A stretch of 64,000 nt of DNA from sequence record OL770073.2; one strand, 5' to 3'. The translations under genes and the position numbers were made by a program. The stretch comes from Escherichia phage vB_EcoM-RPN226. Below are positions 38,780 through 63,667 of the stretch, in pieces (position 1 is the stretch's first letter; every line of letters starts with the position of its first letter). The notes under the pieces are model-generated. The model had not been told where the DNA came from. It worked only from the letters and a program-made list of their open reading frames with translations, and searched no databases.

Positions 38780-38810
38780 GTTTACACGTTGATGAGGTAG
38801 TGATACTATT
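38780..38810 (+). promoter_or_regulatory. early promoter (GTTTAC -35, GATACTAT -10) for IPI-like gene
   Basis: GTTTAC at 38780-38785; -10 flanked by inverted repeat GATGAGGTA/TACCTCATC. Confidence 0.6.
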
Positions 38811-38839
38811 ACCTCATCAAAATTAATTAGGAAAATAAA

Positions 38840-39112: not shown

Positions 39113-39145
39113 GTTTACTTTTAGATGGGGTAGTGATACTATTAC
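39113..39145 (+). promoter_or_regulatory. early promoter (near-duplicate of the 38780 promoter)
   Basis: GTTTAC at 39113-39118; shares GGTAGTGATACTATTACC with the 38780 promoter. Confidence 0.6.
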
Positions 39146-39170
39146 CCTATCAACTACAGAGGAGAATAAA

Positions 39171-39740: not shown

Positions 39741-39813
39741 TGGGAATTAGCCAAGTTGGTAAGGCATAGCACTTTGACTGCTAGATGCAAAGGTTCGAGT
39801 CCTTTATTCCCAG
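39741..39813 (+). tRNA. tRNA-Gln (anticodon TTG)
   Basis: acceptor stem TGGGAAT/ATTCCCA, T-arm GGTTCGAGTCC, anticodon loop CTTTGAC read by hand. Confidence 0.8.
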
Positions 39814-39814
39814 C

Positions 39815-39901
39815 GCGAGAATGGTCAAATTGGTAAAGGCACAGCACTTAAAATGCTGCGGAATGATTTCCTTGTGGGTTCGAGTCCCACTTCTCGTACC
39901 A
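39815..39901 (+). tRNA. tRNA-Leu (anticodon TAA)
   Basis: acceptor GCGAGAA/TTCTCGT, long variable arm, T-arm GGTTCGAGTCC, encoded CCA; forms a dimer unit with tRNA-Gln. Confidence 0.8.
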
Positions 39902-39907
39902 AAGTTT

Positions 39908-39979
<72 letters not shown>

Positions 39980-39992
39980 AAATTTAATTTAC

Positions 39993-40065
39993 TCCGTGTA
40001 GCTCAGTTTGGTAGAGCGTCTGCTTTGGGAGCAGAATGTCGCAGGTTCAAATCCTGCCGCGGAGA
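39993..40065 (+). tRNA. tRNA-Pro (anticodon TGG)
   Basis: D-arm TAGCTCAGTTTGGTAGAGC, anticodon loop TTTGGGA, T-arm GGTTCAAATCC. Confidence 0.8.
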
Positions 40066-40067
40066 CT

Positions 40068-40154
40068 GGAGGCGTGGCAGAGTGGTTTAATGCACCGGTC
40101 TTGAAAACCGGCAGTCGCTCCGGCGACTCATAGGTTCAAATCCTATCGCCTCCG
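40068..40154 (+). tRNA. tRNA-Ser (anticodon TGA)
   Basis: acceptor GGAGGCG/CGCCTCC, long variable arm, anticodon loop CTTGAAA, T-arm GGTTCAAATCC. Confidence 0.8.
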
Positions 40155-40161
40155 TAATTTC

Positions 40162-40234
40162 GCTGATTTAGCTCAGTAGGTAGAGCAACTCACTTGTAAT
40201 GAGGATGTCGGCGGTTCGATTCCGTCAATCAGCA
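40162..40234 (+). tRNA. tRNA-Thr (anticodon TGT)
   Basis: acceptor GCTGATT/AATCAGC, D-arm TAGCTCAGTAGGTAGAGC, anticodon loop CTTGTAA, T-arm GGTTCGATTCC. Confidence 0.8.
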
Positions 40235-40240
40235 TATCAA

Positions 40241-40312
40241 GGCCCTGTAGCTGGAAGGTTCAAGCAAGCGACTCATAATCGCCAGATGGTGGTTCAATTC
40301 CACCCAGGGCCA
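40241..40312 (+). tRNA. tRNA with CAT anticodon (Ile by T4 analogy, would be called Met by anticodon alone)
   Basis: acceptor GGCCCTG/CAGGGCC, anticodon loop CTCATAA, T-arm GGTTCAATTCC. Confidence 0.7.
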
Positions 40313-40319
40313 TATTTTG

Positions 40320-40360
40320 GGAACATAAATACTCTTAGAAATAGGAGATATTTATGTTCC
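40320..40360 (+). promoter_or_regulatory. 12-bp perfect hairpin sequestering segB start codon; SD in loop
   Basis: GGAACATAAATA (40320-40331) pairs with TATTTATGTTCC (40349-40360); ATG 40354-40356 in 3' arm; loop carries AGGAGA; 5' arm contains CATAAATA, a near-late-promoter. Confidence 0.6.
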
Positions 40361-41019
40361 ATTACACTTATAAAATAACAAATAAAATTAATAATAAAAT
40401 CTATATAGGCGCTCATTCTACCGAAAATTTAGATGATGGATATATGGGTTCTGGTAAATTATTAAAAAGAGCCCAAGACAAGTATGGTATAGAAAATTTC
40501 TCTAAAGAAATATTAGAGTTCTTTGACGATAAAACCTCTATGTTTGAGTCAGAAAAGAATATTGTGACTGAAGAGTTTTTAAAGCGCCCTGATGTTTATA
40601 ATTTGAAATTAGGTGGTGAAGGTGGTTGGGACCATTTAAACACTAAAGAATATTTGGATAAAAAGAAAGAAGCTTCCTTAAAAGGGGCTGCTGCTTTTAA
40701 AACCAGATTTGAGAACGACCCAGACCTTAAAGAAAAATATCGTAAAATGGGTTCAGAAAGGTTTAAACAGCTTTGGGATAATCCTAAGTATAGAGAGAAA
40801 TTTTTAAATACTAAATCTTTCTTGGGTAAGACCCATACTCCTGAAACTATTAATAAAATGAAAGAATCTCACGCCAAAAATAAACACCAACAAGGCGAAA
40901 AGAATTCCCAATTTGGTATGATGTGGATTCATTCATTAGATGAAAAAGTTTCTAAACGTATTAAGAAAACTGACCCAATTCCAGAAGGATGGTTTAAAGG
41001 TCGAAAAATGAAATTTTAA
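40354..41019 (+). CDS. segB: GIY-YIG homing endonuclease SegB-like, embedded in tRNA cluster
   Basis: 221 aa, GIY-YIG motifs YTYKITN...KIYIGAH; start codon sits in the 3' arm of a 12-bp perfect hairpin. Confidence 0.8.
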   Translation: MFHYTYKITNKINNKIYIGAHSTENLDDGYMGSGKLLKRAQDKYGIENFSKEILEFFDDKTSMFESEKNIVTEEFLKRPDVYNLKLGGEGGWDHLNTKEYLDKKKEASLKGAAAFKTRFENDPDLKEKYRKMGSERFKQLWDNPKYREKFLNTKSFLGKTHTPETINKMKESHAKNKHQQGEKNSQFGMMWIHSLDEKVSKRIKKTDPIPEGWFKGRKMKF

Positions 41020-41022
41020 TTA

Positions 41023-41099
<77 letters not shown>

Positions 41100-41415
41100 G
41101 ACAAGAAACCGGGTCGCTACCGGTAAGTCGTCGGACTGATGTTCCCTGAGTAAGGAATTGTGTTAATAAATCTTTATGATTTGTTGATGCCCTCTTACAT
41201 CACAGCAGAAACGGCGCTCAGAATTATCGATTCGAGGAAATATCTTTGCCGTAAGCCGAGTAGCGTTTTTGACGGAACGTTCGGATATGGTCGAGATATG
41301 GCCTTTTAAAAATATTGAGTAGCGTCAACTACTTAATAACCGGGTTCGAATCCCGGCGTTTCGTACAAACACTTGCCTTAGCAGGTGGAACCCCGACAAG
41401 GTTGCCGCAAGGCTT
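41100..41415 (+). ncRNA. small stable RNA region (T4 species 1/2, rnaC/rnaD-like, tRNA-like 3' element)
   Basis: about 320 nt non-coding between tRNA-Arg and a rho-independent terminator; contains tRNA-like T-arm CCGGGTTCGAATCCCGG; boundaries uncertain. Confidence 0.4.
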
Positions 41416-41443
41416 AGCCCCAGCCGAAAGGTTGGGGCTTTTT
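41416..41443 (+). terminator. rho-independent terminator after stable-RNA region
   Basis: AGCCCCAGCC-GAAA-GGTTGGGGCT hairpin plus TTTT. Confidence 0.7.
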
Positions 41444-41445
41444 AG

Positions 41446-41453
41446 TATAAATA
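41446..41453 (+). promoter_or_regulatory. late promoter (TATAAATA) for CTS-protein gene at 41493
   Basis: TATAAATA directly after terminator 41416-41443. Confidence 0.5.
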
Positions 41454-41492: not shown

Positions 41493-41966
41493 ATGAAATC
41501 ATATGCTCAATTTTTAAATGAAGTGGCGTTAAATGAAGCATCCGCTTCAGATGTTCGCGCTGTAGCAACTGCTGCTATTAAAGCTGGTAAATATTCTTAT
41601 AAAGATGCTTCTGATGAATCCCGGTACAAGTTCTACGACGATATGAGAGCTGAAGGCTTTGTGGGTAACTATGTTACCACCGCCTGGAAAAGCCTGGTTG
41701 CTACTGGTGCGGCTTTCGAAAAACCTTCCGGTAAACCTGCTCCTAAAGCAGATCCTAAAGCTGCACAAGAAAAAAATATTGTTAAAGGAATTATCGCTAA
41801 ATATGAAGCTATCCTTAAAGAGCTTTTAGTAATCAAAACCGAAGGCCAAAAGTTAGCCCGTGCTTATAGTTTCAAAGACAACCCACATGCTCATGACCTA
41901 GAGTATGTTGAAGACATCCAAAAAATTATTAAAGACCGCATTTGGTCTGCTAAACAAATCAAATAA
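41493..41966 (+). CDS. capsid-targeted internal-protein-like protein
   Basis: 157 aa, N-terminal CTS MKSYAQFLNEVALNEA, flanked by two copies of the same terminator hairpin and preceded by TATAAATA. Confidence 0.55.
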   Translation: MKSYAQFLNEVALNEASASDVRAVATAAIKAGKYSYKDASDESRYKFYDDMRAEGFVGNYVTTAWKSLVATGAAFEKPSGKPAPKADPKAAQEKNIVKGIIAKYEAILKELLVIKTEGQKLARAYSFKDNPHAHDLEYVEDIQKIIKDRIWSAKQIK

Positions 41967-41972
41967 CATTTT

Positions 41973-42000
41973 AGCCCCGACCGAAAGGTTGGGGCTTTTT
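41973..42000 (+). terminator. rho-independent terminator after CTS-protein gene (near-duplicate of 41416 terminator)
   Basis: AGCCCCGACC-GAAA-GGTTGGGGCT hairpin plus TTTTT. Confidence 0.7.
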
Positions 42001-42121
42001 GATATCTAGGCCTTTCTGGACCTCTCTAGGCATCATTTAGTTTATACCCTTTATAATATATTATCCTATCCTTTAATTGCCCATCCCTGCCCTAGAATTC
42101 CCTAAAACTTTTTAAAAATTT

Positions 42122-42177
42122 TTTCACAAAACGGTTTACATCCCCGTTCTTCCATGGTACTATACAACTATCAACTA
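42122..42177 (+). repeat. dispersed early-promoter module repeat, copy 1 of 3
   Basis: TTTTCACAAAAC..GTTTACA..GGTACTATACAACTATCAACT also at 54913-54968 and 56375-56408. Confidence 0.6.
42134..42166 (+). promoter_or_regulatory. early promoter module
   Basis: TTTTCACAAAAC upstream element, GTTTAC at 42134-42139, GGTACTATACAACTATCAACT -10 region. Confidence 0.6.
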
Positions 42178-42207
42178 CTGATACAGAAAAACAACTTGGA
42201 GAATGAA

Positions 42208-42471
42208 ATGGATAATTACGGCGAACTGTTCAACTTCTTTATGAAATGCGTTTCAGAAGATTTCGGTCGTACAGTGAATGATATTAAAGTTATCGGTCCT
42301 GATCATCCGATGTTTGAAACTTACGCAGTAATGGGTAATGAAGATGGTCAGTGGTATACTGTAAAGGTTGTGATTAACATGTTCACTGCTGAAGGTTATG
42401 TTAAACTGTCTTCTAAAGTTTACCATGATAACGACGAAATCGCAGAAGAATATTTTAATAATATGAAATAA
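42208..42471 (+). CDS. hypothetical protein
   Basis: ATG at 42208 after GGAG, downstream of early promoter at 42134; longest ORF start 42154 lies inside the promoter. Confidence 0.45.
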   Translation: MDNYGELFNFFMKCVSEDFGRTVNDIKVIGPDHPMFETYAVMGNEDGQWYTVKVVINMFTAEGYVKLSSKVYHDNDEIAEEYFNNMK

Positions 42472-42526
42472 GTTTACATAGGCTCATGATTGAGATATTA
42501 TGAGCCTATAATTTGAGGAAACTGTT

Positions 42527-43057
42527 ATGTCTCTTTATACCGAACTGAATGAAACTTCCGAAAAATCTTTTGATGGTATCTTATCAATAATGCAAAAGCA
42601 GGTATTAGAACAGCTTAGTGAAGCCGCAAGCAACGGACATAAGGCTTGTCGAATCCCAAGCCCACATCGTCGCCTGTATGAACGCCCTCTTATTAATTGG
42701 CTAGAAAGCGAAGGTCTTACAGTTAAGATTTGTCCTGCCAAATTTGATGTCCCACGTATTCTTAATATTTACTGGGATAAACCGATTGAGAAACCGATTG
42801 AGAAAAGTGAACCTTGGGTTGTCAATGTAAAAACATATGATAATGGATGCTCACTTGAGGTGTCTGCTGTAATTAAAGGCACTCACGGTGAAAAATCGTG
42901 GGGTTGGCCTGGCAAAGATAAAGAAATCGTGTTAAGTGTAAAAGCTACTAGTATTAGTACTCCTATAGCTAAAAGCATTATCGCCGCCGCTGTTGAAGAA
43001 GCTGAACGAATTTGTAAAATTAAAAATAGTTTACATCTCTTAAATAGCATGATATAA
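42527..43057 (+). CDS. hypothetical protein
   Basis: 176-aa ORF with RBS gaggaa; internal KPIEKPIEK duplication. Confidence 0.45.
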   Translation: MSLYTELNETSEKSFDGILSIMQKQVLEQLSEAASNGHKACRIPSPHRRLYERPLINWLESEGLTVKICPAKFDVPRILNIYWDKPIEKPIEKSEPWVVNVKTYDNGCSLEVSAVIKGTHGEKSWGWPGKDKEIVLSVKATSISTPIAKSIIAAAVEEAERICKIKNSLHLLNSMI

Positions 43058-43100
43058 TTCTTCCACAGATTTTAATTTTTAATCAACCTAAGGAAATACT

Positions 43101-44705: not shown

Positions 44706-45049
44706 ATAAAGTCAAATATTCTTTTTCTGAGTCATTTTTAATTTTTGCTGTGGCGTTGGCTGCAGCTCTTGCGGGTAGTCTTTTTGGATTGTTAATTGAC
44801 TGTCTTATTTTAAACATCGACGGCACAGTAAATATAACAGAAGTTTGGAGTGAACTTCGTTTTACTATAGCGATTTCATTATTTTCATTCTTTGGCACCA
44901 TGCTATTTTTTCATTATGATAATTTTAAAATAAATTGGCAAAGAAAAAAGGATTACAAAATACAATTAAAAGAATATAATAGCTACATGTCTTATATTGA
45001 AAATGAATCAATGAAAGAGTTTGTGATTGATTGCAGGAAATTAAAATGA
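44687..45049 (+). CDS. small membrane protein
   Basis: 120 aa with hydrophobic helices, overlaps neighbours. Confidence 0.4.
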   Translation: MQKPKLNKVKYSFSESFLIFAVALAAALAGSLFGLLIDCLILNIDGTVNITEVWSELRFTIAISLFSFFGTMLFFHYDNFKINWQRKKDYKIQLKEYNSYMSYIENESMKEFVIDCRKLK

Positions 45050-46290: not shown

Positions 46291-46320
46291 GTTTACTTCC
46301 TCCAAGGACTTTGATACTAT
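46291..46320 (+). promoter_or_regulatory. early promoter upstream of denV remnant
   Basis: GTTTAC at 46291-46296 and GATACTAT at 46313-46320. Confidence 0.55.
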
Positions 46321-46347
46321 ACATTCATCAACTACTTGGAGGAAATT

Positions 46348-46422
46348 ATGACTCGTATCAATTTAACAACTTCAGAATTATTTCTGGTGGTAAGGCTTAA
46401 ACAGTTTACGCTTAAGTATTAA
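46348..46422 (+). pseudogene. denV: denV (endonuclease V) remnant: first codons only
   Basis: early promoter plus RBS GGAGG plus ATG encoding MTRINLT (T4 DenV N-terminus), then divergence and a stop after 24 codons. Confidence 0.5.
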
Positions 46423-49213: not shown

Positions 49214-49253
49214 GTTTACTTTTCCTCTTGACTGTGGTATAATTTTTCTATCA
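49214..49253 (+). promoter_or_regulatory. early promoter for regB
   Basis: GTTTAC 49214-49219, TGgTATAAT with TATAAT at 49248-49253. Confidence 0.65.
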
Positions 49254-49270
49254 GTTAAGAGGAGAATAAC

Positions 49271-53681: not shown

Positions 53682-53882
53682 ATGCTGACACACGAACAGT
53701 TTGAAAAAATCATTAAATTAGCACGTGATGTTGAAATAGATTCATATCAATTAGCAGTTGAGCATTGTGAAGGATATTCATATGAAGGTATAGCAGCAGC
53801 TAAAAGAGATTTGGATGAATCTAAAGCTAAGTTAGTTCAATATCTTGAAATGATTAGGTGGAATAATGAAAACTGTAGTTAA
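53682..53882 (+). CDS. hypothetical protein
   Basis: 66-aa ORF, similar helical composition to previous small ORF. Confidence 0.4.
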   Translation: MLTHEQFEKIIKLARDVEIDSYQLAVEHCEGYSYEGIAAAKRDLDESKAKLVQYLEMIRWNNENCS

Positions 53883-54876
53883 GTCTTATTTTGGTAGTCA
53901 TCTTTATGGAACTTCTACTCCAGAATCTGATGTAGATTTTAAAGAAATCTTTGTTCCTCCTGCTCGTGATATTCTTATTGGAAATGTTAAAGAGCATATG
54001 AGCAAAAACACTAACAACACATCATCTAAAAACACTAAAGATGATATTGACCATGAACTATACAGTCTTAAGTATTTCTTTAAATTAGCAGCAGATGGTG
54101 AAACCGTAGCATTGGATATGCTCCACACTCCACCTGAACTGGTAGTTAAATCTGATTTGCCTGATGTATGGAAGTTTATTCAAGACAATCGTTCTCGTTT
54201 TTATACGACTAACATGAAATCCTATTTAGGATATGTCCGCAAGCAAGCTTCTAAATACGGTGTCAAGGGTTCTCGTTTGGCCGCATTACGTGATGTATTG
54301 AAAGTAGTTAATCAAATCCCTGACCAGTGGGTCGACTATCAAGAAGGAATCCCTGATAGACTTCGTCGCACTAAAGTTGAAGATATTAAGCATCGTCTTC
54401 CAGAAAACGAGTTCTGCGAATGGGTATTCTATAATCATGAGAAAACAGGCCCGCAAACGTTCTATACTGTGTTGAGTCGTAAATATCAGACTACACTTTC
54501 TCTTATTGAGCTTAAGCAGTCTTTGAATAAACTTGATGCTGAATATGGTGAACGTGCTCGTAAAGCTGAAGCGAATGAGGGTATTGACTGGAAAGCTCTG
54601 AGTCATGCTTGTCGTGGTGGACTCCAACTATTGGAAATTTACAAAACCGGTGACTTAGTTTATCCACTTCAAGACGCTCCATTTATTCTCGACGTGAAGC
54701 TGGGTAAGCATCCATTTAAAACTGTTCAAGAGTTTTTGGAAGATGTGGTCGATCAAGTAGAAGCAGCATCCATTGAAGCTTCTAAGAACGGTATGCAACA
54801 AAAAGTAGACATGGGTTTCTGGGATGACTTCCTTGAGAGGGTTTATCTTGAAAACCATCGAAGTTATTATAAATGA
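53866..54876 (+). CDS. Pol-beta-superfamily nucleotidyltransferase-like protein
   Basis: N-terminal signature GSHLYGTSTPESDVDFKEIFV (GS, spacer, DxD); 336 aa; followed by strong terminator. Confidence 0.55.
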   Translation: MKTVVKSYFGSHLYGTSTPESDVDFKEIFVPPARDILIGNVKEHMSKNTNNTSSKNTKDDIDHELYSLKYFFKLAADGETVALDMLHTPPELVVKSDLPDVWKFIQDNRSRFYTTNMKSYLGYVRKQASKYGVKGSRLAALRDVLKVVNQIPDQWVDYQEGIPDRLRRTKVEDIKHRLPENEFCEWVFYNHEKTGPQTFYTVLSRKYQTTLSLIELKQSLNKLDAEYGERARKAEANEGIDWKALSHACRGGLQLLEIYKTGDLVYPLQDAPFILDVKLGKHPFKTVQEFLEDVVDQVEAASIEASKNGMQQKVDMGFWDDFLERVYLENHRSYYK

Positions 54877-54878
54877 TA

Positions 54879-54907
54879 GGGAGCCTTCGGGCTCCCTTTT
54901 TTATTTC
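54879..54907 (+). terminator. rho-independent terminator after nucleotidyltransferase gene
   Basis: GGGAGCC-TTCG-GGCTCCC hairpin followed by TTTTTTATTT. Confidence 0.75.
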
Positions 54908-54926
54908 AAAAATTTTTCACAAAACT

Positions 54927-54965
54927 GTTTACAAGCATAAAGCTTTATGGTACTATACAACTATC
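54927..54965 (+). promoter_or_regulatory. early promoter module for AAA+ ATPase gene
   Basis: TTTTCACAAAAC upstream element, GTTTAC 54927-54932, GGTACTATACAACTATCAACT. Confidence 0.6.
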
Positions 54966-54990
54966 AACTGATACGGATTTGGAGAATAAA

Positions 54991-55959
54991 ATGAAAACTG
55001 TAACTATCAATAAGGGTATCTACTTCGGTAAAGAAATCTCTGGAACTTTTGAGCTCTTAGGCGAATGGTTCCCAGATAATGCTCCGGTAGATGCACAAGG
55101 AGATGGTAAAGTTTTTGTTGAAATTGACGGTAAACGTCGCGGTGTTTGGGTTTACAAATCAGATATTTCATATGATGGTGTAAAAGTTGAAGAAGTTAAA
55201 GAATCGTATGAAGATATGAAAACCCGCATTAATAAAAGATTTAACGTTATGGGAATGATGACGAACGGTATTATTAATGGAAATATTCGTTCATTAATTA
55301 TCTCTGGCGCAGCAGGTATTGGTAAAACGTATTCTTTAGATAAAGCTTTAAATAAAGCAAATGATATTGGATACATTGAATATAAAAGCATTAATGGTAA
55401 AATCTCTGGTATTGGTCTTTATGAGCAGCTTTGGAATAATCGTGAAGAGAATTCTGTCCTTTTGATTGATGATGTGGATGTTTTCTCTGATATGGATATT
55501 CTTAATCTTCTAAAAGCCGCTCTGGACACCGGAGAGACCCGTAAAGTCTGCTGGAGCACTGCGTCTTCTTACTTAGAAGAAAAAGGCATTGAGCGTGAGT
55601 TTGAATTTAAAGGAACGATTGTTTTTATCACAAACGTTGACATTGACCGCGAATTAGACCGTGGTACTAAACTTGCTCCACACTTACAAGCATTAGTGTC
55701 CCGCTCAGTTTATTTGGATTTGGGTGTTCATACTAATGAAGAAATTATGGTCAGGGTTGAAGATGTTATTCTTTCAACTGACATGATGCAAAAGCGCGGT
55801 CTTTCTGATGAAGAAACTTATAAAGCATTATCATGGATGAAAGTTAATGTTAATCGTTTACGCAATGTTTCACTGCGTACTGCTCTTTATCTTGCTGACT
55901 TTATTATGACCGACAAAAACGGTTGGGAAGAAATTGCTGAGGTTACTCTTCTGAAATAA
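54991..55959 (+). CDS. AAA+ ATPase
   Basis: Walker A GAAGIGKT, Walker B VLLIDDVD; start ATG 54991 after GGAG. Confidence 0.6.
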   Translation: MKTVTINKGIYFGKEISGTFELLGEWFPDNAPVDAQGDGKVFVEIDGKRRGVWVYKSDISYDGVKVEEVKESYEDMKTRINKRFNVMGMMTNGIINGNIRSLIISGAAGIGKTYSLDKALNKANDIGYIEYKSINGKISGIGLYEQLWNNREENSVLLIDDVDVFSDMDILNLLKAALDTGETRKVCWSTASSYLEEKGIEREFEFKGTIVFITNVDIDRELDRGTKLAPHLQALVSRSVYLDLGVHTNEEIMVRVEDVILSTDMMQKRGLSDEETYKALSWMKVNVNRLRNVSLRTALYLADFIMTDKNGWEEIAEVTLLK

Positions 55960-56060
55960 TTCATAAGAGGACTTCTATGACAAAAAGGCAGTTCAGAAAT
56001 AGATTATATGGACTGCCATTTAAAAGATGACTAGAATTAAACTGGTGAATGGAGGTAGTG

Positions 56061-56363
56061 ATGTTATACTCAAAGGCTCGTGAAATTTACGAAACTAAGA
56101 TTAAAGAAGCAGTATTTCAATTCGCAACGACAATGCGATGGACAAATGACTGGGAGTATTCAAAAAATCATAAGAAGCCCATGGTGACAAGAAAGGCTCA
56201 TATGTTAGTGTTAATAGACCGTGAGCAGATTAAAGCCCGAGAAGCCCTCCAGAATCATAAAAAGGCTGCCTTTGAATGGTTTATGGATAACACTGCTCCT
56301 GAGACTAAGAAAGCAGTAAGCGCATGGTTCAGTGGAAAAAATTGTGAAAGAAGTTTCTTTTAG
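56061..56363 (+). CDS. hypothetical protein
   Basis: start after GGAGGTAGTG. Confidence 0.4.
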   Translation: MLYSKAREIYETKIKEAVFQFATTMRWTNDWEYSKNHKKPMVTRKAHMLVLIDREQIKAREALQNHKKAAFEWFMDNTAPETKKAVSAWFSGKNCERSFF

Positions 56364-56365
56364 TG

Positions 56366-56405
56366 GTTTACAAGACTGTTCCTCTGTGGTACTATACAAC
56401 TATCA
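56366..56405 (+). promoter_or_regulatory. early promoter module
   Basis: GTTTAC 56366-56371, GGTACTATACAACTATCAACT. Confidence 0.6.
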
Positions 56406-56423
56406 ACTATGGAGGAACACAAA

Positions 56424-56951
56424 ATGAATGCTAAAGATATTTTCAACTTGGTAAATTACAACGATGGTAAATTTAAATCTGAAGCACAAAGCAAGTTCTT
56501 TAATGACATCTCAATCGGAGGTGAAATCACAGTTGATGGAGGACAAATTTACAAATCCCGTTGGAATTGGATCGTTATTATTGATGAGATTGGTATTGTC
56601 GAAATTTACAAAAATACGAATAAAAATCGTACATTACACTGGTCTCGTGATACTAACGAACAGTACAAAAAGGATAAAGCATCTAAATTATCTCGTGTAA
56701 CTCAAGAAGATATTGAGTTCATCAAGAAAGATATTTTAATGTATGATAACTTAATTGCTGAAGAGCAAGCTGTTATTGATAAATTTGATGAGATTAAAGC
56801 TTCTCGTGAAATTCCTGATTTTATGAAAGAATCAGTAAATGAACGATACACTCTCATTTCAGAGCGTATTGAAACTTACAAAAAGCAAAGAGCTGAACGC
56901 CAAAATACTCTTCGGAAGTTTGAAGAACGGTTAAAGACGGTACTCGCATAA
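56424..56951 (+). CDS. hypothetical protein with C-terminal coiled coil
   Basis: start ATG 56424 after GGAGGAA, downstream of early promoter. Confidence 0.45.
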   Translation: MNAKDIFNLVNYNDGKFKSEAQSKFFNDISIGGEITVDGGQIYKSRWNWIVIIDEIGIVEIYKNTNKNRTLHWSRDTNEQYKKDKASKLSRVTQEDIEFIKKDILMYDNLIAEEQAVIDKFDEIKASREIPDFMKESVNERYTLISERIETYKKQRAERQNTLRKFEERLKTVLA

Positions 56952-59378: not shown

Positions 59379-59406
59379 GTTCTTACTTTCTACTGAGGAG
59401 ATTAAT

Positions 59407-60333
59407 ATGACTCGTAAACATTATATTGATTATTTTGACAGTCTTATTACTAAACACCACAATTATCAGATCGGACACAGAGCAGTAATTAATAATATTC
59501 TTCGTGATTTCCTTCAATATGTTGGCCAGGAAAATCATATCTGTAAAGATACTCAAAACGCTTATTCTCATTCGTTAGGCAATTTGCTTGAATGGTTTAA
59601 ACGTTCTCGTATGTTATCTTCTACTGTAGCTCGCGATAACATTAAAAACTTTATGAAGCCGAGATTCATTAAAACTGCGACATCTATAACCGATTTGGTT
59701 GAATTTACTATTATTAACGATGTTAAAAAGACCCATTTAGCTGATTGGTTATCTACCATTCCTGAAACTAAATTTGCTGATAAATTCGCTTGTCAATTCA
59801 ATGACCAAGTGAATATGCTTTTTAAGCATGCTCGTAAACTATTTACCGCGGGCGATGACCGTACAAATACAGTTCATGTTAAGGACTGGGTTATTGCTGA
59901 TGAAGTAACACACAAACCAGGTGGTTCATCAGTATTAATTAATATCCAGGTTCCTTATTATTACTCACGTAATCTCGGCACCATGACAGCTAGAGAAATT
60001 AATAAGCATAACAAAACTATTCGTTCGTTGTCTTATAAACTCTGCACGATGGTGGAGATGATGGACGTAGTGGAAATGTATGATGAAACCGAAGATAATG
60101 ATTCAATGCTGTACAGTTCACGCATTCTAATTAAACTGAAGAACCCTAATACGTATAAGCCAGTTGTAAAAGAACCTAAAGTAGAAAAGGTTGATAACTT
60201 GAGCGAAGAACGTGAATATCTCAATGCTCGTTTGATTGAAGTTGAAGCCCAAATTGCAGAACACACCAAATTGTTAAAAGCTCTTAATGCAAAAGCAAAT
60301 GGTTTACGTAATGCTATTGAGGTACTGAAATGA
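59407..60333 (+). CDS. hypothetical protein with C-terminal coiled coil
   Basis: start ATG 59407 after GAGGAG, downstream of TATAAT early promoter. Confidence 0.45.
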   Translation: MTRKHYIDYFDSLITKHHNYQIGHRAVINNILRDFLQYVGQENHICKDTQNAYSHSLGNLLEWFKRSRMLSSTVARDNIKNFMKPRFIKTATSITDLVEFTIINDVKKTHLADWLSTIPETKFADKFACQFNDQVNMLFKHARKLFTAGDDRTNTVHVKDWVIADEVTHKPGGSSVLINIQVPYYYSRNLGTMTAREINKHNKTIRSLSYKLCTMVEMMDVVEMYDETEDNDSMLYSSRILIKLKNPNTYKPVVKEPKVEKVDNLSEEREYLNARLIEVEAQIAEHTKLLKALNAKANGLRNAIEVLK

Positions 60334-62929: not shown

Positions 62930-63469
62930 CAATTGAAAAAGAAATTGAAGGATTGATTCATAAAACTAATAAAGACCTTTTAAACGAGAATGCTAATAAA
63001 GATTCTCGTGTTTTTCCAACTCAACGGGACCTTATGGCTGGTATTGTGTCTAAACACATTGCCAAAAATATGGTCCCGTCTTTTATTATGAAAGCGCATG
63101 AAAGCGGAATTATTCATTTCCATGATATTGATTATTCCCCTGCTCTTCCATTTACTAATTGCTGTTTAGTAGATTTAAAAGGAATGCTTGAGAACGGATT
63201 TAAGCTCGGTAATGCACAGATTGAAACTCCTAAATCAATCGGTGTTGCTACTGCAATTATGGCACAAATTACTGCACAGGTTGCTTCCCATCAATATGGC
63301 GGAACGACTTTTGCGAATGTAGATAAAGTACTTTCTCCTTATGTTAAACGCACCTATGCAAAACATATTGAGGACGCAGAAAAATGGCAAATCGCTGATG
63401 CGTTGAATTATGCCCAATCTAAAACAGAAAAAGATGTATACGATGCATTCCAAGCTTATGAGTTAACGT
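62926..63469 (+). CDS. nrdD: anaerobic ribonucleotide reductase NrdD, exon 1 (interrupted by group I intron)
   Basis: ATGA overlap with gene 49; reading frame continues into intron sequence; exon/intron junction position approximate. Confidence 0.75.
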
Positions 63470-63667
63470 AAGTCAAGCTCATGTAAAATCTGCCTAAAAC
63501 GGGAAACTCTCACTGAGACAATCCGTTGCTAAATCAGCAGTAGCTGTAAATGCCCAACGACTATCCCTGATGAATGTAAGGGAGTAGGGTCAAGCGACCC
63601 GAAACGGCAGACAACTCTAAGAGTTGAAGATATAGTCTGAACTGCATGGTGACATGTAGCTGTTTAT

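Follow-up and report, generated by a model that had tools for sequence, protein, structure and literature searches.

Three copies of a repeat in the early region of Escherichia phage vB_EcoM-RPN226 (OL770073.2) are, judged by their architecture, early sigma-70 promoters of the T4 type, standing before the genes e.8, nrdC.10, and nrdC.8. The window, as we use the term, is the whole 64,000-nucleotide stretch of this genome that was analysed. Such T4-like early promoters very probably also serve as short homology patches for cassette exchange, as held by the promoter-early stem-loop (PeSL) model. Both the promoters and the notion that they act as recombination joints are already in the literature, and the joint idea, which an earlier note on this DNA had raised from the letters, is a rediscovery of that model. 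Work on the early promoters of T4 goes back decades, and the joint model was published in 2010 and 2014, the latter including T4/PST. The value here is a check of the PeSL model against hundreds of sequenced Tequatrovirus genomes, and the outcome is mixed: the comparisons favor the model for one site out of the three and for several neighboring promoters, but do not make it general.

A 3.5-kb segment around the repeats has matches in 830 phage records, the best being Tequatrovirus genomes (97-98% identity), and the match spans the genes nrdC.6-nrdC.11. By these matches the window is from a Tequatrovirus, a T4-like phage, and it is oriented in reverse of the T4 reference. GC skew and ORF orientation identify 35-64 kb as the leftward early region of a T4-type genome, lying on the + strand here. 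Comparison with the T4 reference gives nrdC.11 at 53866-54876 and nrdC.9 at 56049-56363, with its stop codon at 56361-56363, and, along with the ORF list, nrdC.10 at 54991-55959 with its ATG at 54991. The nrdC.8 coding sequence at 56424-56951 is taken from the ORF list and the T4 annotation and belongs to PHROG 2274, of unknown function. The e.8 coding sequence is an ORF with its ATG at 42208 and stop at 42471, assigned to PHROG 2678, also of unknown function, and named e.8 in related records. All of these genes are on the + strand.

The e.8 promoter copy is just downstream of the tRNA/segB/small-RNA region. That region has eight tRNA genes at 39741-41099 (Gln, Leu, Gly, Pro, Ser, Thr, Met, Arg). 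In the place of the segB homing endonuclease of T4, between tRNA-Met and tRNA-Arg, the window has a 221-codon ORF (40354-41019), and breakpoints in relatives are at 40312 and at 41023/41103. An Rfam scan of the whole window places no RNA family over the promoter modules and finds only tRNAs and a group I intron. The intron is at 63428-63659 (RF00028, 103 bits), the position expected for the T4 nrdD intron.

An exact 21-mer, GGTACTATACAACTATCAACT, occurs at 42156-42176, 54949-54969, and 56388-56408, always on the + strand, with 0 expected, since 100 dinucleotide-preserving shuffles gave no match even with up to 3 mismatches allowed. Each copy lies at a fixed distance, 18 nt downstream of GTTTAC, and the pattern GTTTAC-N(15-19)-GGTACTAT is found in the window at these three places only. 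Farther upstream, TTTTCACAAAAYNGTTTAC is exact at 42121 and 54914 and missing from the third copy, as is the upstream block TTTTCACAAAAC.GTTTAC, which is exact in the other two; a 2-mismatch version of TTTTCACAAAAYNGTTTAC is found at another promoter, 38767. Over a 56-nt block, pairs of copies are alike at 40-43 of 56 positions (71-77%). The identical stretches among the three copies are -14..+8 (21-22/22) and GTTTACA (7/7), the UP block is alike at 11/12 in two copies only, and the 15-nt spacers are alike at only 4-8 of 15 positions. Because the spacers are not conserved, the three copies are not recent whole-module duplicates. The earlier note had described near-identical repeats of ~45 bp; the repeats are real, but their extent was overstated, and the coordinates given there hold for the first two copies but not for the third, where the start falls in the spacer and GTTTACA is actually at 56366-56372.

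The pattern GTTTAC-N18-TAnnAT occurs on the coding strand at 12 sites in the early region of the window, and in nearly all of them TG precedes the -10, the DNA upstream is A/T-rich, and an SD-ATG follows after 25-45 nt. In the three repeats, GTTTACA is exact as the -35 at 42134, 54927, and 56366, and the -10 is TACTAT at 42158, 54951, and 56390, which is 18 nt after GTTTAC and 17 nt after TTTACA, with TGG directly 5' of TACTAT as an extended -10 in all three. Each promoter is upstream of, and co-oriented with, a prereplicative gene, and is followed by the SD and start codon of a small ORF.

At e.8, the A/T-rich UP-element block AAAACTTTTTAAAAATTTTTTCACAAAACG (42104..42133, +), within which TTTTCACAAAACGGTTTAC is exactly common with the nrdC.10 promoter, is followed by the core promoter at 42134..42176 (+; -35 GTTTAC 42134-42139, TGn 42155-42157, -10 TACTAT 42158-42163), and then by a 5'UTR starting at 42177 with the SD GGAGA at 42198-42202 preceding the e.8 ATG. 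At nrdC.10, the order begins with the intrinsic terminator of nrdC.11, AGGGAGCCTTCGGGCTCCCT and then a T run (54878..54903, +), found by the terminator scan and annotated as a rho-independent terminator in OL960581. Its stem at 54878-54897 and the T run are the stem-loop part of the nrdC.10 composite element. Next are the UP-element block ATTTCAAAAATTTTTCACAAAAC (54904..54926, +), a zone in which some relatives have crossovers, the core promoter at 54927..54969 (+; -35 54927-54932, TGn 54948-54950, -10 TACTAT 54951-54956), and the 5'UTR TGATACGGATTTGGAGAATAAAATG from 54970 (+), with an SD/RegB-like GGAGAATAAAA at 54981-54991. The A/T-rich UP region AAAAATTTTTCACAAAAC is present at both the e.8 and nrdC.10 promoters. 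The nrdC.8 core promoter at 56366..56408 (+; -35 56366-56371, TGn 56387-56389, -10 56390-56395) abuts the nrdC.9 stop codon and has neither a terminator nor a match to the UP block; its upstream region is A/T-rich, but lies inside the nrdC.9 coding sequence.

T4 carries identical promoter sequences at e.8, nrdC.10, and nrdC.8. The e.8 module is found upstream of the annotated e.8 in T4 strain 147, and OL960581 (phage SA20RB) annotates both nrdC sites as T4 early promoters. With the T4 architecture, these matches bear out the term early promoter as the earlier note had used it. The T4 early-promoter consensus has GTTTAC at -36..-31, an A-rich UP at about -40..-44, A-11, and T-7 (Nolan 2006, PMC1524935), and T4 early promoters have been characterized as "uber UP/-35/TGn/-10" promoters with additional consensus regions (Hinton 2010, PMC2988021). 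The repeats share with them GTTTAC(A), the 17-bp TTTACA-to-TAnnAT spacing, TGn, A-11/T-7, the A/T-rich UP, and the prereplicative position, and differ in nothing essential, although the sub-family of the trio has a -10 of TACTAT instead of TATAAT, followed by an invariant ACAACTATCAAC.

Because GTTTAC is -36..-31 in the published T4 numbering (PMC1524935), we infer +1 to be the A of ATCAAC, at 42170 for e.8, 54963 for nrdC.10, and 56402 for nrdC.8. Immediately after infection, E. coli sigma-70 RNA polymerase, unmodified or modified by Alt, would read the modules, with the UP element contacting the alpha C-terminal domains, GTTTACA at -36..-30 contacting sigma region 4, TGG at -15..-13 acting as the extended -10, TACTAT occupying -12..-7, and transcription starting at that A. 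The GGAG SD of the leader would also suit RegB/S1 cleavage: the leader GGAGAATAAAATG conforms to a Shine-Dalgarno sequence as well as to the RegB/S1 target, which is 11 nt of GGA plus an A-rich stretch (PMC1702504). An SD-start family, AGGAAAATAAAATGAAAAC (family D4), has five copies in the window, at 38829, 39160, 45035, 46453, and 54980; it too fits the GGA + A-rich RegB/S1 target, and it is a crossover zone at nrdC.10 and at 45020-45049.

The earlier note held the repeats to be far more conserved than promoter function alone needs. That goes too far for the UP, -35, TGn, and -10 elements, which are RNA polymerase contacts, but it has merit for the invariant -6..+8 block, for the 5'UTRs common to unrelated genes, and in view of the evidence of exchange between modules. 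We rejected an NAD-capping preference at the start site as the reason for the conserved start region, which fits the published consensus poorly.

The sub-family is wider than the trio, with no fewer than seven modules to a genome, which have -14..+8 in common and often the leader too. A 20-mer is present up to six times per T4-like genome in IMG/VR, before seven different genes, which are e.8, nrdC.10, nrdC.8, motA (its identity confirmed with PDB 6k4y), and three small ORFs. Leaders are common to unrelated genes, as with TGATACGGATTTGGAGAATAAAATGAAA before nrdC.10 and two other genes; spacers are chimeric between sub-family members; and one genome has the complete nrdC.8 module, from the -35 to the ATG including the spacer, before a different 37-codon ORF. 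The shared leaders, chimeric spacers, and duplicated nrdC.8 module together argue for common descent rather than convergence. In a ZN18-like genome (IMG/VR 2974787500; locus L006, 12097-12108), 17 of 460 positions at the nrdC.8 promoter depart from the window sequence, and 5 of the 17 substitutions fall within 9 nt, changing TACTATACAACT to TATTATTACCCT, which another promoter of that genome carries as its block. We read that cluster of substitutions as a probable gene-conversion patch. Across clades, the nrdC.10 and nrdC.8 promoters within one genome tend to share a discriminator, and the commonest discriminator is ACAACT here (12/57 promoters) and AGACCT in two more distant clades (7/23 and 22/63). 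The clustered patch, the duplicated modules before unrelated genes, and the lineage-specific blocks show, on comparison of these genomes, that modules exchange with one another; the sub-family would have a common descent and be kept alike by recombination or gene conversion between modules.

Pure functional convergence would be another way to arrive at such a family, with selection driving every copy to one optimal promoter and homology playing no causal part; breakpoints would then fall at promoters because each small cassette requires one and intergenic recombinants alone survive. It has in its favor that the conserved blocks are polymerase contact regions while the spacers differ, that nrdC.8 was never rearranged in the sample of relatives described below, and that promoterless junctions are also frequent joints, the enrichment at promoters not being significant. 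We nevertheless consider it unlikely, because it has trouble with leaders that have no known polymerase role (TGATACGGATTT...) being identical before unrelated genes, with the whole nrdC.8 module being duplicated elsewhere, spacer included, with the 5-in-9-nt conversion patch, and with chimeric promoters that switch exactly at shared blocks with 13-50 nt of overlap. The probability of the 21-nt identity is about 10^-5.8 per pair from the family column frequencies, taken from the other nine early promoters of the window, and experiments in RB49/phi1 have detected excised PeSL mini-circles (PMC2839356).

The invariant -6..+8 block, ACAACTATCAACT, could instead be an operator or recognition element for a phage factor, marking a separately regulated subclass of early promoters, with early shut-off or Alt-dependent stimulation as candidate roles; its uniformity would then come from the specificity of the factor and not from recombination. 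The block is outside the classical contacts, it is common to a defined subset that includes the motA promoter, its dominant form differs by lineage (ACAACT here versus AGACCT in other clades), and neither early shut-off nor the promoter specificity of Alt is understood (PMC2988021, PMC3014915). No such factor is known, however, both block types co-occur within Tequatrovirus genomes, mutational analysis (cited in PMC2988021) could not trace the Alt effect to any one position, and the conversion patch shows that nrdC.8 is retained when its block is swapped. We consider an operator improbable, more so than convergence.

Joints were looked for by comparing cassette boundaries in related genomes. 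For each site, a 651-bp query was compared with 50,697 phage records and 60 records were sampled evenly down the ranking. Breakpoints are found at one of the three modules, that of nrdC.10, where 23 of 52 sampled close relatives have an insertion or break at the promoter in the nrdC.11/nrdC.10 interval, in at least six insert architectures. Seven fetched relatives show the interval to be a combinatorial cassette array. There is no cassette in the window or in T4; cassette A, with ORFs of 150 and 264 bp, is in CM8 and Nami; cassette B, of 201 bp, is in JK38 and SH7; A and B are together in slur03; a 486-bp ORF is together with A in AV121; and a 291 + 198 bp pair is in BW-1 and T2. A PHROG scan of the genes and cassettes returned unknown function for all except a 161-aa cassette ORF of AV121, which has a weak ADP-ribosylase-like match.

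The junctions in this interval are chimeric inside the module, and switch in three zones. The first is the T-tract/UP/-35 block at 54894-54943, where junction sequences and BLAST overlaps give 39-50 nt in common (54894-54932 for BW-1 and 54894-54943 for AV121). The second is right after the -10, at ACTATCAA, 54967, and is used in CM8, JK38, SH7, and others. The third is GGAGAATAAAATGAAA, with 17-21 nt of overlap at 54979-54999. Direct repeats of the T-tract + UP + GTTTAC stand on either side of the BW-1 cassette. In Salmonella phage STML-198, a Gelderlandvirus, a cassette array of its own, with four ORFs, lies between the homologs of nrdC.11 and nrdC.10, and within it (locus L071, 1501-1547) a 47-bp block running from the -10 to the ATG is 95.7% identical to the nrdC.10 module of the window; it lacks a -35 and precedes a 180-bp ORF.

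A PeSL is a composite of a terminator, an early promoter, and an SD, flanking variable ORFs (Arbiol 2010, PMC2839356), with crossovers mapped between the -10 and the ATG and in the A/T-rich region (PMC2839356). The model was extended to T4/PST with the consensus TTTACW-N17-TAYWAT (Comeau 2014, PMC4122927), and the repeats fit that consensus. The nrdC.10 copy is also like a PeSL in joining a stem-loop, an A/T-rich region, an early promoter, and an SD/ATG in a hyperplastic region with variable small ORFs. It has all of the sequence features, and the e.8 and nrdC.8 copies only part of them. Unlike a PeSL, nrdC.8 has neither an upstream stem-loop nor variable neighbors, and has a hairpin spanning the promoter instead, and at e.8 the stem-loop is ~130 bp away and is itself the joint, rather than the promoter. 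Where the model applies, the short conserved blocks (13-50 bp) would be homology patches for the phage's own recombination system, because the small early genes each carry a module, and cassettes would be inserted, deleted, or replaced between modules, which is the published PeSL mechanism. We infer the recombination enzymology and the direction of the events from these patterns.

Arrays of this kind also bring to mind integron gene cassettes (attC/attI), an analogy that the PeSL authors drew too (PMC2839356). The likeness is in the small promoter-proximal cassette arrays and the combinatorial variation between close relatives; unlike integrons, there is no integrase among the flanking ORFs scanned, no fixed crossover site, and each cassette has its own promoter. 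That the modules are dedicated sites for site-specific recombination or transposition (integron-attC-like or MITE-like) and not substrates of general recombination is a possibility raised by the PeSL authors as well (PMC2839356), and the integron-like look of the arrays would suit it. We give it hardly any credence, since the modules have no terminal inverted repeats or target-site duplications, crossovers are spread over at least three module blocks and not one fixed site, the flanking ORFs scanned include no integrase-like gene, and many joints are at promoterless gene junctions. A MITE-like or duplicated mobile element is ruled out by the differing spacers, the absence of inverted termini and target duplications, and the unfixed crossovers. 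Cassette exchange is apparently by general recombination at short homologies.

The other two modules behave differently from that of nrdC.10. Among 49 sampled close relatives, nrdC.8 has no indel or rearrangement. The e.8 region is frequently rearranged, but at a stem-loop, TTAGCCCCGACCGAAAGGTTGGGGCTTTTT, ~130 bp upstream, and not in the promoter. The stem-loop is part of a 35-nt direct repeat, TTAGCCCCAGCCGAAAGGTTGGGGCTTTTT (family D13, 89% identity), with a left copy at 41414..41448 (+) and a right copy, the joint near e.8, at 41971..42005 (+; stem-loop 41973-41996), both terminator-like. The pair bounds a cassette ORF at 41493-41966 (157 aa, PHROG 2280), and T4, which has one stem-loop copy and not the cassette ORF, breaks at 41448/41971. 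In pSs-1, a further 564-bp ORF is inserted at the same stem-loop as this cassette.

The e.8 region also breaks at the next promoter, P42472. Between P42472 and P43029, e.7 has been replaced, over 42501-43084 of the window, from the -10/ATG of P42472 to the leader after P43029, and the gene following e.8 in the window is an ORF at 42527-43057 (176 aa, PHROG 6869) in place of T4 e.7. Crossovers inside the element are not confined to nrdC.10, and are seen at the early promoters P42472, P43029, and P59349. The earlier proposal, that the repeats are recombination joints that move cassettes, is supported for nrdC.10, with its chimeric junctions inside the module, and such joints are supported for these three promoters, but not for nrdC.8 or for the promoter of e.8. 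At 59398-59426, most relatives are ~1.04 kb longer, with an nrdC.4-like gene; the overlap there is 17-29 nt and takes in the SD, ATG, and first codons (ATGACTCGTAAACATTATAT), downstream of P59349. The window also lacks the mobD homing-endonuclease gene, a 1.7-2.3 kb insert in T4 and several relatives, whose junction at 53853-53875 is promoterless, with 20-23 nt of overlap where nrdC.11 starts.

To set these sites against other gene boundaries, we took a census of 49 gene junctions at 41-63 kb versus 16 aligned related stretches. About 21 of the 49 have breakpoints. Promoter-bearing junctions are broken in 6 of 9 cases, a count including the e.8 junction, whose breaks are at the upstream stem-loop and not at the promoter itself, versus 15 of 40 for promoterless junctions (Fisher p=0.146). 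With this p value over 49 junctions and 16 relatives, the difference is not significant and we claim no enrichment. Many of the broken promoterless junctions are ATGA-type stop/start overlaps, and one is the mobD insertion site. The qualitative evidence for exchange within modules is strong; the census does not show that modules are more recombinogenic than other gene boundaries. Selection against recombinants that break genes would by itself leave the surviving breakpoints in intergenic or promoter DNA, and much of the breakpoint pattern can be accounted for by selection for viable recombinants. A promoter module alone does not make a hotspot, as nrdC.8 illustrates, and promoterless gene junctions are joints about as often, which tempers the PeSL model.

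The hairpin at nrdC.8 belongs to a wider pattern. When each early-promoter module is folded from -36 to the ATG, strong hairpins are predicted to enclose 6 of the 12 early promoters, at 38789-38820, 39124-39151, 42478-42509, 46297-46344, 49220-49266, and 56377-56419, each with the -35/-10 spacer as its 5' arm. Three of them close just after the -10 (promoters 38780, 39113, and 42472), with dG of -16 to -18 kcal/mol and z of -2.7 to -5.9. The other three close on the promoter's own SD, at P46291 (small ORF at 46351), regB P49214, and nrdC.8, with dG of -17.7 to -22.4 and z of -3.8 to -5.8. For nrdC.8, the predicted RNA hairpin pairs the spacer with the SD region at 56377..56419 (+; dG -17.7 kcal/mol, z -3.76), with the conserved -10..+4 block as its loop. 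In a T4-like relative it has a dG of -23.2, and a distant clade retains it with arms of wholly different sequence. Neither of the two promoters directly preceded by a terminator (nrdC.10 and P53230) has a hairpin of this kind.

Arm sequences vary from promoter to promoter but remain complementary. Perfect stems of at least 7 bp between the spacer and downstream sequence occur in 17% of 101 non-redundant promoters from the fetched loci, versus 1.9% of permuted pairs. Complementarity of the spacer to the SD in 89 non-redundant modules is not significant overall versus permuted pairs (Mann-Whitney p=0.72), a null that is uninformative because any anti-SD pairs with any SD; the tail of the distribution is enriched, with 9% at or below -10 kcal/mol versus 2.3% permuted. 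Mismatches flanking the stems, as an indicator of RNA- versus DNA-level structure, are G-T in 33 cases and A-C in 18, which is suggestive only.

The 5' arm precedes the start site, which means that the hairpin could form in read-through RNA only. The folding predictions suggest a tentative reading, which we think has somewhat worse than an even chance of being right, that T4-like early promoters are built into RNA switches, in which read-through RNA would be masked and RNA from the promoter itself unmasked. Translation-initiation hairpins with internal promoters are known in T4 for e, soc, 49, and I-TevI (PMC3014915). As in those, the SD at nrdC.8, P46291, and regB P49214 is predicted to pair upstream of the start; unlike those, the internal promoter here is early sigma-70 and not late gp55, and the 5' arm is the promoter's own -35/-10 spacer. 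Such hairpins at early promoters were not described in the literature that we searched, a search that was not exhaustive. If confirmed, they would be of modest interest for T4 gene expression, carrying over to early promoters a logic that until now has been described for late ones only, and would explain why spacer and leader co-vary and why the hairpin is absent from the terminator-preceded modules.
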